Source of the DNA: an uncultured delta proteobacterium
Lineage (GTDB): Bacteria; Desulfobacterota; Binatia; UBA9968
Direction: 5' to 3'
Length of the DNA: 64,000 bases
NCBI GenBank assembly: GCA_963816145.1
Contig: CAWFJP010000029.1
Span: 96,001 to 160,000 of the forward strand
Shown here: one piece after another, positions 369-58,054 of the stretch
Numbering within the stretch: position 1 is the stretch's first letter
Layout of the letters: each line of letters starts with the position of its first letter
Position numbers and translations under genes: made by a program
The notes under the pieces: model-generated
The model's input: the letters and a program-made list of their open reading frames with translations, nothing else
Told to the model about the DNA's origin: nothing
Databases searched by the model: none

Positions 369-404
369 GGATTATCTCCCGCAAAGACGCAAAGGTCGCA
401 AAGT
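369..404. repeat. Single arm of CRCRAAGx3 repeat (CGCAAAG subtype)
   Basis: GGATTATCTCCCGCAAAGACGCAAAGGTCGCAAAGT, nearly identical to 31349-31384. Confidence 0.8.
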
Positions 405-420
405 AGGGAACGAAACAGTT

Positions 421-499
421 CACCACGAAGGCACGAAGGACACGAAGGCATCGAAGCAATAATTGTTCCGACCTTCGTGCTCTTCGTGCCTTCGTGGTG
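421..499. repeat. Inverted doublet of CRCRAAGx3 repeat (CACGAAG subtype), REPIN/MITE-like
   Basis: CACCACGAAGGCACGAAGGACACGAAGG (421-448) and CCTTCGTGCTCTTCGTGCCTTCGTGGTG (472-499). Confidence 0.88.
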
Positions 500-31348: not shown

Positions 31349-31473
31349 GGATTATCTCGCGCAAAGACGCAAAGGGCGCAAAGTTCGGGGAAAACTGTTT
31401 AGACGAATTTGCTAGCCTTAATGTCTTTCGGTTTTGAATTTAGCGTCTTTGCGCCTTTGCCGGAGAACAATCC
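31349..31473. repeat. Inverted doublet of CRCRAAGx3 repeat (CGCAAAG subtype)
   Basis: GGATTATCTCGCGCAAAGACGCAAAGGGCGCAAAGT (31349-31384) and ATTTAGCGTCTTTGCGCCTTTGCCGGAGAACAATCC (31438-31473). Confidence 0.8.
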
Positions 31474-55159: not shown

Positions 55160-55239
55160 TCACCACGAAGGCACCAAGGACACGAAGGTTTTTGATGAAT
55201 AATGTTCCAGACTTCGCGCTCTTCGTGTCTTCGTGGTGA
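55160..55239. repeat. Inverted doublet of CRCRAAGx3 repeat (CACGAAG subtype)
   Basis: TCACCACGAAGGCACCAAGGACACGAAGG ... CTTCGCGCTCTTCGTGTCTTCGTGGTGA. Confidence 0.88.
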
Positions 55240-55455: not shown

Positions 55456-56217
55456 ATGAAACTGGCGACCTGGAACGTAAACTCACTGAAAGTTAGACTG
55501 CCCCATGTCTTGGAATTCCTCGACCGGCATAAACCCGATGCGCTGTGTTTGCAGGAGATCAAACTCGAAGATCCAAACTTTCCCAGCGCCGATTTCAACG
55601 CCGCGGGTTACCAGGCGGTGTTCTCCGGCCAGAAGACTTACAACGGCGTGGCGATCCTATCGCCGTCGGCCGCGGCCGAAGTAAGCGTCGGCATTCCCAG
55701 CCTCGGCGATCCGCAGAAGCGGGTAATCGCGGCGACCGTGAACGGCGTCAGAGTCATCTGCGTGTATGTCCCCAACGGCGAAGCCGTCGAGTCGGATAAG
55801 TACAAATATAAACTCGACTGGCTGATGGCGCTAACTGTCTGGTTGAAACATGAACTGGCGACCTATCCTAAACTCGCGCTGTTGGGCGACTACAATATCG
55901 CGCCGGAGGATCGGGATGTTTACGATCCCAAGGCCTGGGCCGGCAAAGTGCTGTTCAGCGACCCGGAAAAAGCCGCGTTCAAAGGTCTCGTCGCTCTCGG
56001 CATGACGGATAGCTTTCGCATGTTCGACCAAGCCGATAAGTCCTACAGCTGGTGGGACTACCGCATGAACGGCTTCAAGCGCAATCTCGGCCTGCGCATC
56101 GACCACATCCTACTCTCGCCGGAATTGGCGAAGAGCTGTAAGAGCTGCGCCATCGACAAAGACTTCCGCGCCAAAGAACGCCCTTCCGATCATGCCCCTG
56201 TCATTGCAGAGATTTAG
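55456..56217 (+). CDS. xth: Exodeoxyribonuclease III
   Basis: ATWNVNS, LQEIK, YNGVAILS, YVPNG, GDYNIAP, GLRIDHIL, PSDHAPV. Confidence 0.95.
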   Translation: MKLATWNVNSLKVRLPHVLEFLDRHKPDALCLQEIKLEDPNFPSADFNAAGYQAVFSGQKTYNGVAILSPSAAAEVSVGIPSLGDPQKRVIAATVNGVRVICVYVPNGEAVESDKYKYKLDWLMALTVWLKHELATYPKLALLGDYNIAPEDRDVYDPKAWAGKVLFSDPEKAAFKGLVALGMTDSFRMFDQADKSYSWWDYRMNGFKRNLGLRIDHILLSPELAKSCKSCAIDKDFRAKERPSDHAPVIAEI

Positions 56218-56270
56218 GAATCGGAGAGTTGAACGTAAAGAACGCAAAGTGAAGAAGTTCGGATCAGAGG

Positions 56271-56767
56271 ATTAACCGCAAAAAGCGCAAAGGGCGCAAA
56301 ATGGGAATGGCAGGGAGCAAATAGTTTCAAATACATCTAAGGAAGCGGTGTCGTAGACAGTGCGAACTTTCGGATCTGGAACTTGGGTGCTCCAAAATTG
56401 AGCAATAGCGCGTGCTGCAACCTTGCTGCTCGTAGGTAGCCAAAAACCTGAGCTTCATGTTCTGCGGCTAGAGACTTTGCTGCTTTTATCTCCAAAATCA
56501 AGAAGTCTTCTACCAGGATATCGACGAAATATTCTCCCAGCAGAGTCCCGTCCTGGTCCCAAACACTTAGAGGGTATTGCTGCTTAGTCTTTATGCCCGC
56601 TTTGATAAGACGATGGGCTAAAGCGTTTTCATAAATCTTCTCAAGGTGCCCATGGCGTAGGTAAACGTGGATCTCAAATGCTAATTGGCGAATCTTGTCA
56701 CAAAGTGCATTAATCTCCCTCTGGTTCATCGTCTTATTTTGCGCTCTTTGCGCCTTTTGCGGTTAAT
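56271..56767. mobile_element. Putative minimal element: GxxExxY gene bracketed by 32-bp inverted repeats
   Basis: ATTAACCGCAAAAAGCGCAAAGGGCGCAAAAT (56271-56302) vs ATTTTGCGCTCTTTGCGCCTTTTGCGGTTAAT (56736-56767), 30/32 complementary. Confidence 0.72.
56337..56729 (-). CDS. GxxExxY protein (PD-(D/E)XK nuclease-like)
   Basis: GHLEKIY, YFVDILVE..ILEIKA, HEAQVFGYL, LLLNFG. Confidence 0.92.
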   Translation of the reverse strand: MNQREINALCDKIRQLAFEIHVYLRHGHLEKIYENALAHRLIKAGIKTKQQYPLSVWDQDGTLLGEYFVDILVEDFLILEIKAAKSLAAEHEAQVFGYLRAARLQHALLLNFGAPKFQIRKFALSTTPLP

Positions 56768-56783
56768 GCGTCTGACTTATCCC

Positions 56784-57905
56784 CTATTCGAAGCTATACA
56801 TTCGTGCGCAGTTGTCCCACAGCCATTTGCGTTTCATTTGATCGGTGAAGGGTTGCTTCAGGAACGTGTCGATGGCGTGGGGATATTTTACATCTAGGTG
56901 CGGGTAGTCGGTGGAGAAGACCATATTGTCTTCGAGGCCGTACTCAGGGATGTGTTTGGCGGTGACCTCGTCGCATTCGACGGCGCCGTAGCAATTGCGC
57001 TGGAAGTATTCCAGCGGTGTTAGTTTCAAGTCCGGATATTCCGCCACGCCAGTGGTTTCGGCATATTCGCCCATGCGCCATAAGAGCCAGGGCACCCAGG
57101 AGCAGTTGCCTTCCAGAAACGCCACTTTCAATCTGGGAAAGCGTTCCATCACGCCGCCGAAAATCATGTCGCCGCAGGCGAGCATATTCGCAAAGGGAAA
57201 GCCGAAGGTGTTGAACATAGAAAACGTCGAACAAATGTGAAAGAACGCCGGCTGCGGCAGATAAACCCGGCCGGCTTCGTGGAAGCCCACCGGCAAGTTC
57301 AACTTCTCGCACTCGGCCCAGAGCGGATCGTAATAGGGATCACTCCACTTTTTGTTATTGACGTGATTGGGCCGGATAAAGATGCCGCGGAAGCCATATT
57401 CTTTCACCGTGCGGCGGATCTCCTCGATGGCACCGCTGATGTCGTGGGGCGCGACCATGGCGATGCCGAACATGCGCTTGGAGTCGGCTTGGGCGAAGTC
57501 GTGCAGCCAATCGTTGTAAGCGCGGGCGATGGCGGTGGCGAAGTCGGGGTCCAGGCCGTCGATGCCCAGCACCGTCAACGCGCGGGTGGGAAACAGAAAG
57601 GCGATGTCGAGGCCTTCCTTGTCCATGGCCTGGAGTTGCGACACGCCGTCGAAGTTGCGCTTGCCGGCTTCGCCGTATTTCTCGTCGAAGAAGTCTTGGC
57701 GGTATTTCGCCAGGGCTGGATTTTCCGGCTTGCGCGGAATCGGCAACACTTTGCCTTCGACCTCAATGCCGAGATCGCGAAAGGCGCGGTTCAAGCCCTT
57801 GGGCGCGCGGTCGAGATATTTCCTATCGATGTAGCGTTGCCACAGATCCGCGGGCTCGAAGACATGCATGTCGGAGTCCATCGCTTTGAAACCATTCTTG
57901 GCCAT
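56784..57905 (-). CDS. Amidohydrolase_2 family protein
   Basis: DSDMHVFEP, AYNDWL, YDPLW, FGGVMERFPRLKVAFLEG, FSTDYPH, DNCARMY. Confidence 0.92.
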   Translation of the reverse strand: MAKNGFKAMDSDMHVFEPADLWQRYIDRKYLDRAPKGLNRAFRDLGIEVEGKVLPIPRKPENPALAKYRQDFFDEKYGEAGKRNFDGVSQLQAMDKEGLDIAFLFPTRALTVLGIDGLDPDFATAIARAYNDWLHDFAQADSKRMFGIAMVAPHDISGAIEEIRRTVKEYGFRGIFIRPNHVNNKKWSDPYYDPLWAECEKLNLPVGFHEAGRVYLPQPAFFHICSTFSMFNTFGFPFANMLACGDMIFGGVMERFPRLKVAFLEGNCSWVPWLLWRMGEYAETTGVAEYPDLKLTPLEYFQRNCYGAVECDEVTAKHIPEYGLEDNMVFSTDYPHLDVKYPHAIDTFLKQPFTDQMKRKWLWDNCARMYSFE

Positions 57906-57972: not shown

Positions 57973-58054
57973 TTCACCACGAAGCGCACGAAGGACACGA
58001 AGGTCTCGAAAACGTAGTCTCCGAACTTCGTGCTCTGCGTGTCCTTCGTGGTGA
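57973..58054. repeat. Inverted doublet of CRCRAAGx3 repeat (CACGAAG subtype)
   Basis: TTCACCACGAAGCGCACGAAGGACACGAAGG ... CTTCGTGCTCTGCGTGTCCTTCGTGGTGA. Confidence 0.88.

Follow-up and report, generated by a model that had tools for sequence, protein, structure and literature searches.

REP/REPIN-RAYT systems have a gene in single copy with inverted repeats on either side, whilst gene-less inverted doublets of these repeats are dispersed between genes in tens to hundreds of copies. These systems leave no target-site duplication, their doublet families are specific to the lineage of the flanked gene and copy number varies greatly among relatives. The RAYTs are HUH/Y1 enzymes and each REP arm is one short palindrome. 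A related layout is found in a stretch of 64,000 nucleotides from an uncultured delta proteobacterium (C29:96001-160000 of a 7.82-Mb assembly, hereafter the window), where two inverted arms of tandem units enclose a single gene, which encodes a GxxExxY protein; this element is referred to here as the cassette, and arms of the same design recur without any gene as doublets. As in REP/REPIN-RAYT systems there is a large set of doublets, 132 in the genome carrying the arm word CACGAAG of another GxxExxY gene (the C14 gene), and these are without direct repeats at their ends. Unlike those systems, the arms consist of three tandem units and the enclosed gene encodes a PD-(D/E)XK nuclease or a four-helix bundle rather than an HUH (Y1) enzyme. 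The cassette also differs from an insertion sequence with derived miniature inverted-repeat transposable elements (MITEs), as there is no target-site duplication and no recognised transposase family in its 130-aa protein. A link to RAYTs was rejected, as the genome has seven Y1_Tnp matches and none of the six whose flanks were read has tandem-unit arms, the hairpins being of the ordinary IS200 type. Integron attC and CRISPR readings were dismissed from anatomy alone, as arrays are lacking and neither integrase nor cas genes lie nearby.

A further described system is the intervening sequence (IVS) of 23S rRNA that bears an open reading frame (ORF), for which the available passages of the source name Coxiella burnetii, Leptospira, Brucella and the Xanthomonas-type S23p (PMC4990558). 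The Coxiella IVS is described there as having a 28-bp terminal stem and three tandem heptamers ahead of the start codon, with RNase III cutting at the first repeat (PMC4990558). The cassette is like these IVS in holding a single ORF of ~120-130 aa between terminal inverted repeats of ~28-32 nt, in having an arm of tandem heptamers beside the start codon and a weak ribosome-binding site, and in that repeat number varies and ORFs decay among strains; both are viewed as selfish (PMC4990558, same passages). It is unlike them in lying between protein-coding genes and not in helix 25 or 45 of 23S rRNA, in carrying a PF13366 PD-(D/E)XK protein and not a PF05635 four-helix bundle (which is the cargo of eight other cassettes), and in being accompanied by hundreds of gene-less doublets. 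A paper on rRNA insertions in the Candidate Phyla Radiation is, from the part available, also relevant to IVS proteins (PMC11270868).

Arms without a gene have been described before in other terms. In Geobacter metallireducens the "putative global regulator binding sites" of classes 1-3 are, in the text passages available, opposite-strand pairs of 3-5 tandem 7-9-nt units, found as 8-24 intergenic pairs per class with a variable distance between the paired sites, and they are interpreted as operators for unidentified IHF/HU-like global regulators (PMC2700814). The class 2 unit given there, TCTCCGTS, complements the AACGGAG-type word that flanks the C24 GxxExxY gene of the genome studied here, and neither those passages nor 12 of the 19 supplementary files link the sites to an enclosed small gene (PMC2700814). 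Rehm et al. describe, in the abstract, GGGNATC heptamer arrays in the non-coding DNA of Xanthomonas and Nostoc, preferably of four units (PMC4692102). These arrays favour co-oriented gaps and avoid divergent ones as the doublets do, but they are single, G-rich and quadruplex-forming, and the abstract has neither inverted pairs nor an associated gene (PMC4692102). Contrary to the original prediction the design is not wholly undescribed, because the ORF-bearing 23S IVS (PMC4990558) and the Geobacter paired sites (PMC2700814), as far as those sources were available, precede it. Searches with protein-family, IVS-protein, heptamer, hairpin and four-helix terms found no literature link between GxxExxY genes and such arms, and one table row on PF13366 reads "Unknown ... 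multiple transfers" (PMC3424549, table row only).

The cassette and its relatives

The cassette is very probably a member of a family of hairpin-bounded single-gene elements that is built like the ORF-bearing IVS of 23S rRNA. Its design is that of a small gene alone between inverted arms, each made of three tandem 7-nt units with 1-2-nt spacers. In the window (Table 1) an inverted-repeat search finds the two arms 433 nt apart and complementary at 30/32 positions (94%), with both mismatches falling within inter-unit spacers, and each arm has three CGCAAAR units (CGCAAAA, CGCAAAG, CGCAAAA) at a 9-nt period. The pair would score 26 on the inverted-repeat measure used, and the top score among 411 displaced control windows at other loci is 19. 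A weak inverted symmetry continues for ~9 nt beyond the arms, to about 56262-56776. An ORF search finds the GxxExxY gene to be the sole ORF that the arms enclose. The original prediction, of a 393-bp GxxExxY ORF alone between 32-bp inverted repeats (30/32 match) with its ATG 6 nt inside, and of three-unit arms at an 8-9-nt period, was thus borne out by repeat, ORF and profile searches.

The neighbours of the cassette are convergent, an xth-like gene (55456-56217, Exo_endo_phos) on one side and an Amidohydro_2 gene (56784-57905, minus) on the other. Between the cassette and the xth-like gene lies the remnant of an older left arm, of which the partial arm at 56229-56249 (predicted at ~56232-56249, and real) is part, and this remnant aligns with the left arm of the cassettes found at the same junction in relatives. 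It had been left open whether TTAA at the outer ends belongs to the inverted repeat or is a target duplication, and the second reading does not hold, because TTAA is palindromic, is part of the inverted repeat and becomes GGCC on both sides together in relatives; the lack of end direct repeats in the 132 CACGAAG doublets points the same way. An RNA fold of the whole cassette (-160.6 kcal/mol, z -3.77) is closed by a stem of ~40 bp at its ends.

Table 1. Positions of cassette features and doublets in the window, and of related elements elsewhere in the genome and the genus
Feature	Position	Strand	Remarks
5' arm of cassette (read on the gene's strand)	56736..56767	-	32 nt; outer end TTAAC; stops 6 nt short of ATG
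GxxExxY protein gene	56337..56729	-	130 aa; ATG at 56729
3' arm of cassette	56271..56302	-	inverted copy of 5' arm
Remnant of older left arm	56229..56266	+	units AACGTAAAG, AACGCAAAG then GTTCGGA; outside present cassette
Lone CGCAAAG-type arm	369..404	+	directly adjoins the 421-499 doublet
CACGAAG doublet	421..499	.	gene-less
CGCAAAG doublet	31349..31473	.	inverted symmetry reaches outward to TCGGATT..TCTC word
CACGAAG doublet	55160..55239	.	between MFS transporter gene and xth-like gene
CACGAAG doublet	57973..58054	.	between amidohydrolase gene and TctC-like gene
PF05635 gene, full length	C31:553039-553353
PF05635 gene, full length	C11:340835-341149
PF05635 gene, full length	C30:613970-614287
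PF05635 gene, full length	C15:203427-203741
PF05635 gene, full length	C15:185578-185892
PF05635 gene, full length	C11:62976-63293
PF05635 gene, full length	C11:381465-381782
PF05635 gene, full length	C31:434758-435075
PF05635 fragments	C5:239686; C31:454788		one or both arms retained
Long-loop CGCAAAG doublet (example)	C1:429876-430022
Long-loop CGCAAAG doublet (example)	C3:414858-415011
Long-loop CGCAAAG doublet (example)	C5:242474-242619
Long-loop CGCAAAG doublet (example)	C14:38696-38852
TGGAGTGA-type doublets, CoA-transferase-like junction	loci L167, L170, L172, L174, L175, L177-L184

The window gene encodes a minimal PD-(D/E)XK nuclease core of the RecB/Cas4 type that is under purifying selection. 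The protein matches PF13366 PDDEXK_3 (E 9.5e-30, 103.8 bits against a cut-off of 22) and TIGR04256 GxxExxY (E 7.9e-33, 113.3 bits against a cut-off of 35), and in profile searches it matches no transposase family. Its motif residues are G27-E30-Y33, D70, E80-x-K82 and Q94-x3-Y98, and the eight residues G27, E30, Y33, D70, E80, K82, Q94 and Y98 are invariant in an alignment of the five GxxExxY paralogues of the genome. The predicted structure (pLDDT 92.6) has a restriction-endonuclease-like fold with the minimal core named above; the top Foldseek match is Cas4 SSO0001 (E 1.6e-4, TM 0.57-0.62), with the nuclease domains of AddAB and AdnAB, Hjc, lambda exonuclease and RecE among the other near folds, and a sequence search against solved structures gave no match at E up to 1. 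The ratio of nonsynonymous to synonymous divergence (dN/dS) is 0.06-0.11 in all seven cassette-gene pairs with measurable dS. To our knowledge the GxxExxY proteins (TIGR04256/PF13366) and the four-helix-bundle proteins of 23S IVS are two very large families of no known function.

The window cassette is not the only one of its kind in the genome. All five GxxExxY genes are bracketed by arms of three tandem units when their flanks are read, each with a word of its own, which is CACGAAG for C14, CACAGAG for C5, CGCCAAG for C1, AACGGAG for C24 and CGCAAAG for the window. The C14 gene shares its word with the CACGAAG doublets of the window, and the suggestion that the CACGAAG and CGCAAAG subtypes are served by different paralogues agrees with this, since the unit words do differ (C14 having CACGAAG, the window and C1 having CGCAAAG/CGCCAAG). 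The genome also has eight full-length genes for PF05635, the four-helix-bundle protein of 23S rRNA IVS, together with two fragments. All eight full-length genes lie between inverted tandem-unit arms, again with their own words (AGGCAAT; GGGTAAAGG; GAGAGTTGAG; GTTCAA, twice; GAGATAGAGAAT; a TAGTGA/TTAGGGG word; and GGTTTCGGG). The system is not tied to PD-(D/E)XK proteins as had been proposed, as these eight genes are without the nuclease fold and share the design. A third cargo family was not found: among 65 inverted arm pairs that are 160-1500 nt apart, the tight ones enclose GxxExxY or PF05635 genes and nothing else. Another 15 enclosed ORFs were scanned; they are ordinary genes or have no match, and are located between two separate elements; the ordinary genes include TPR, ferredoxin, CMD, dienelactone hydrolase, glyoxalase, hydrolase, enoyl-CoA hydratase, cyclase and response regulator genes. 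At two sites (C18:157951-158218 and C26:31623-31906) CACGAAG arm pairs surround similar inserts of ~230 nt, starting GTGTTTATGAGCATACGC.. and GTGTTGATGATTTTAGGC.., that are not similar to GxxExxY; the one insert that was scanned does not match Pfam.

The association of gene and arms extends well beyond the genus. One cross-phylum scan covered 80 GxxExxY loci, drawn from a wide range of bacterial phyla and from two methanogen records, and 77 of the loci are testable for flanking repeats. A flanking inverted repeat scoring at least 14 is found at 52/77 loci against 5/411 displaced controls, one scoring at least 12 at 64/77 against 13/411, and an inverted repeat of at least 14 with at least three periodic units at 38 loci against three controls. 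At least two CRCNRAG units are present in at least one arm at 51/80 loci, and across phyla an arm almost always has three units that are variants of C-R-C-R-R-A-G. GxxExxY genes are generally flanked by arms, as the original prediction would have it, at 5/5 loci in the genome itself and at 52/77 across phyla. Its expectation that protein clade co-varies with repeat subtype held as well, as unit type follows a tree of 74 proteins with 26 changes, compared with 45-50 in the ten shuffles listed. One clade with CACGAAG arms unites the genus with records from Desulfobacterales, Planctomycetota, Syntrophobacter and Sumerlaeota, four other phylum-level groups. Because unit type follows the protein tree and the CACGAAG clade spans phylum-level groups, gene and arms evidently pass on as a unit, both by descent and by transfer, including transfer across phyla.

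Gene-less doublets and arm numbers

The four doublets and the lone arm that had been reported from the window are all present (Table 1), and as single-stranded DNA the window doublets fold at z -3.5 to -4.7. They belong to a far larger population. A word-based census of the genome, with families labelled by their commonest 5-mer (single-linkage clustering merged nearly all families), gives 1,778 tandem-unit arms, some of which are false matches in GC-rich coding DNA. In the families retained, 676 of 1,575 arms form doublets, with a partner less than 160 nt away, making ~340 gene-less hairpin doublets of which 132 are of the CACGAAG type. The biggest arm families are CACGAAG, GTTCAA/GTTCCA and CGCAAAG/CGCCAAG.

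The CACGAAG family was counted with at most one mismatch per unit, which gives 188 left and 182 right arms that combine into the 132 doublets. The core is 72-74 nt long in 107/132 and conservation reaches 4 nt outward from it (TCAC...GTGA). No target duplication was detected in the 132 doublets at offsets of 0-6 and k of 2-5. Between the two arms of a doublet the units are 96.9% complementary and the spacers 11%. Gene remnants in the loops were not found when 13 proteins were compared with the genome by tblastn at E up to 1; this search gave six extra weak matches, of which the two best were inspected and lie in other coding sequence. The loops being without gene remnants, it follows that doublets multiplied as doublets. 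On a crude ORF map 112/132 lie outside ORFs, and the gaps that hold these intergenic doublets are tandem in 84 cases, convergent in 19 and divergent in nine, against 3673, 935 and 917 for all gaps of the genome. The gene-less doublets are a separately amplified family of uniform size, without target duplication and mostly in co-oriented or convergent gaps, and it is well supported that they form MITE-like swarms of the cassette family.

Several doublets seem to have more than one element in them. About ten CGCAAAG doublets have a loop of ~90 nt that carries a conserved inner module in either orientation (examples in Table 1), made of TGTCATTTCGACC.. plus a GACGGGC..GCCCGTCA hairpin, which seems to be another small element inside the loop. 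At C24:80656-80823 an AACGGAG doublet lies within the loop of a GGGTCGA doublet. Elements do seem to land in or beside resident elements, as at window positions 369-499 and at C24:80656-80823. A different kind of repeat is present at 21 sites of the genome, where strict 7-nt TGGAGAA tandem arrays of at least three exact units are split 18-19 against 2-3 between the strands; these differ from the arms with their 8-9-nt period.

Whether arm number follows the gene was read from 31 genomes of the genus, in which exact triple CACGAAG arms were counted with the reversed pattern as a control. There are 0-257 such arms per genome, and the control pattern is at 0 in every genome. The CACGAAG-clade gene, defined by at least 72% identity plus CACGAAG arms and looked for by single protein queries, is present in 8/13 genomes with at least 30 arms and in 1/18 with fewer (Fisher p 0.0012), or in 7/12 and 1/18 if the unpublished genome G005 is left out (p 0.0025). 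Additional to these eight, G008, which also has at least 30 arms, has a CACGGAG variant of the gene.

Turnover at intergenic junctions

The junction between the xth-like and amidohydrolase genes was read in 11 relatives. The gene is oriented as in the window in G018 and G012 and is flipped between the same neighbours in G019, G004, G003, G007, G021 and G009. In G002 the middle has been deleted, with both arms and both gene ends remaining, G008 has a hairpin of another word with identical outer GGCC ends, and G014 (locus L026) has no element and a different small ORF starting ATGATTGTCGTTTCGAACCGC. The gene copies of G019 and G018 look frameshifted. The comparison of relatives that had been proposed for this junction thus finds it polymorphic, with the full cassette in both orientations, an internal deletion, a foreign hairpin and an element-free state. 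Among the cassette lineages found here all six units switch jointly, from CGCAAAG to CACAAAG. Between G003 and G004 the xth genes have a dS of 0.198, whilst the cassettes between the same neighbours have a dN of 0.277 with saturated synonymous sites and differing arms, and this divergence of the alleles declines into the flanks. In G004 (locus L018) the xth stop codon is lost and the frame is six codons longer, and because it ends in the TAA of the outer TTAA it is the cassette that supplies its neighbour's stop codon.

The two orientations might be taken for an invertible DNA switch, in which the arms are crossover sites and a flip of the gene turns it or a neighbour on or off, the own genome, G018 and G012 having one orientation and the six other genomes the reverse. 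This is very improbable, as there is no recombinase gene in or beside the cassette and, lying between convergent genes, it has no obvious promoter to couple; moreover the orientations are fixed differences between species with saturated synonymous sites, with no mixture in one assembly, and occasional homologous exchange between 32-nt arms suffices for flips.

At other junctions different elements have exchanged places. A junction beside a CoA-transferase-like gene has a CACGAAG cassette in seven genomes (G000, G005, which is unpublished, G006, G007, G009, G016 and G012), a CACGAAG doublet in G003, a decayed gene in G008 and an unrelated TGGAGTGA-type doublet in 13 other genomes; an empty site was found in none of the genomes compared. 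A junction of kinase and response-regulator genes has a cassette of the CGCAAAG clade in G000, G017, G007, G018, G014, G024 and G043, one of the CACGAAG clade in G003 and G044, and a CACGGAG cassette in G008, and a CACGAAG-clade cassette is at a third site in G006. From this comparison it follows that a single cassette lineage occupies at least three sites and arrives where another hairpin already sits. Cassettes thus replace other hairpins at fixed sites between genes and turn round between their arms; they also decay, through internal deletion and to doublets. The window doublet at 57973-58054 is also variable, being present in G019 and G021, degenerate in G007 and absent from G004, G003, G002, G008 and G012; G018 and G014 have other sequence at the junction and the G009 locus ends too early. 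A clean empty site for this doublet could not be placed, the spacer being too diverged among relatives with and without it.

Two observations concern the ends of the neighbouring genes. The word of the TGGAGTGA-type doublet is also the word of the last codons of the upstream gene (..GGAGTGATCTGA), and in several relatives xth ends in ..CGCGGAGATTTAG, a CRCRRAG-like word, just ahead of the CGCAAAG cassette. Such matches could be due to chance, to seeding of arms from local sequence or to targeting of unit-like words.

The turnover of sites bears on a further reading, that pairs of tandem units bind a regulator and are its dispersed operators, the enclosed small protein being that factor, autoregulated by its own arms, and the doublets being regulatory or architectural sites of the host. 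The Geobacter metallireducens paired sites were read as global-regulator sites in the passages available (PMC2700814), operators look like inverted arrays of a conserved word, the 5' arm adjoins the start codon and the protein is under purifying selection. It is nevertheless an improbable reading, since the protein keeps the full catalytic set of a nuclease and has no known DNA-reading domain, and the doublets avoid the divergent gaps in which promoters lie. Arm counts of 0-257 within one genus, and sites swapped for unrelated words at the same junction, fit selfish turnover better.

What the enclosed protein may do

It may be that the protein recognises the arrays of C-R-C-R-R-A-G units in its own arms and in the matching doublets, and that it would cut at or near them. 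Repair of the break by copying would then keep and spread cassette and doublets alike, in a homing-like relation or one like that of REPIN and RAYT, but with no HUH enzyme. Once transcribed, the arms would pair into a long stem, and this may let the insert be tolerated in transcribed spacers, much as RNase III allows for rRNA IVS. This explanation as a whole, descriptive and inferred parts together, stands in our view at about even chances. Action of the protein on its arms is plausible, if at slightly less than even chances, and it is the CRCRRAG word held across phyla, the number of three units, the concerted change of units and a selected, intact nuclease that argue for it. A role as the mobilising enzyme is doubtful. 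The autonomous and non-autonomous pair of the original prediction therefore stands in one part, the architecture that gene-bearing and gene-less forms share, and is in doubt in the other, mobilisation by the nuclease, given the four-helix-bundle cargo and the high-copy genomes in which no cognate gene was found.

A number of results weigh against the protein as the agent of spread. Eight PF05635 genes use the design, so a nuclease is not required for it, nor perhaps for its dissemination. For any one unit word a genome has no more than one or two copies with a gene, and as these copies are so few and mostly syntenic across species, recent transposition of the gene-bearing form is not seen. Linkage alone would yield the co-inheritance of gene and arms. 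Covariation of residues with bases on the tree has 2-4 supported independent pairs, too few for power. The low pairing of spacers within doublets probably goes back to a founder copy with unlike spacers, and ordinary homologous recombination in the genes on either side could account for the allele swap between G003 and G004. Because related genomes are not independent, the Fisher values make the link of arms and gene look stronger than it is. In four arm-rich genomes the CACGAAG-clade gene was not found by query (G019 with 123 arms, G043 with 58, G023 with 48 and G021 with 39), and G006 has two such genes and only eight arms. The expectation that repeat abundance tracks the gene held for CACGAAG, but for CGCNAAG the link is weak; these arms number 0-366 per genome across the 31 genomes, and 7/15 genomes with at least 40 arms have an intact cognate gene against 3/16 with fewer, the xth/amidohydrolase clade having been looked at in 11 of 30 relatives for this count. 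In G021, with 291 CGCNAAG arms, and G019, with 195 and a broken copy only, queries found no intact cognate gene. The four-helix-bundle cassettes and the arm-rich genomes without a cognate gene found are real objections to a transposase role.

Several of the same results would follow if the arms acted in RNA. In such an account the arms of a transcript pair into a stem, which is removed by a host double-strand RNase or which ends or stabilises the message, so that a selfish or accessory small gene (a nuclease serving in defence, as a toxin or in repair, or a four-helix bundle) sits harmlessly in transcribed spacers; host recombination and horizontal transfer spread it, and the doublets are leftovers amplified by an unrelated host process. 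Two unrelated protein families share the design, the Coxiella IVS is cut by RNase III at its repeats according to the passages available (PMC4990558), and the cassette RNA closes with its long terminal stem. The preference of doublets for co-oriented or convergent gaps, the arm-rich genomes in which the queries used found no cognate gene, and the G003/G004 divergence falling into the flanks as homologous replacement would give, are also in its favour. A stem needs complementarity only, yet the CRCRRAG consensus and three units per arm are kept from Bacteroidota to Methanosarcinales, the units are conserved whilst the spacers are unpaired, and all six units change jointly. As it also leaves unexplained the 132 doublets with their uniform length and the link of CACGAAG arms to the gene, we regard this account as rather unlikely.

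If the protein does read and cut its arms, a more far-reaching proposal can be made, which we put forward tentatively. GxxExxY proteins would act in trans as the enzymes of mobile palindromes that form a new class, found across phyla and working without HUH or DDE transposase. In this class a RecB/Cas4-like nuclease of 125 aa would read three C-R-C-R-R-A-G words, cut, and drive the copying of the cassette and of hundreds of doublets, with incoming cassettes landing on resident hairpins. An analogous part, as a second partner that binds arms, would fall to the four-helix-bundle IVS proteins, and the two would jointly explain much bacterial heptamer-repeat DNA that is otherwise without explanation, including the heptamers of cyanobacteria and Xanthomonas, the 'regulator sites' of Geobacter and the rRNA IVS.

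What the window adds is a comparison within one genus. At one junction the cassette occurs either way round or half deleted, and in other relatives a foreign hairpin or no element at all takes its place; deeply diverged cassette alleles are flanked by nearly identical neighbours. With ~1,500 arms in a 7.8-Mb genome it is apparent that these elements shape intergenic DNA at a large scale. A common origin is offered for repeats that have been described separately, as rRNA IVS, as Geobacter "regulator sites" and as heptamer arrays. For each of the two protein families the arms are a concrete candidate substrate, which makes their function directly testable.

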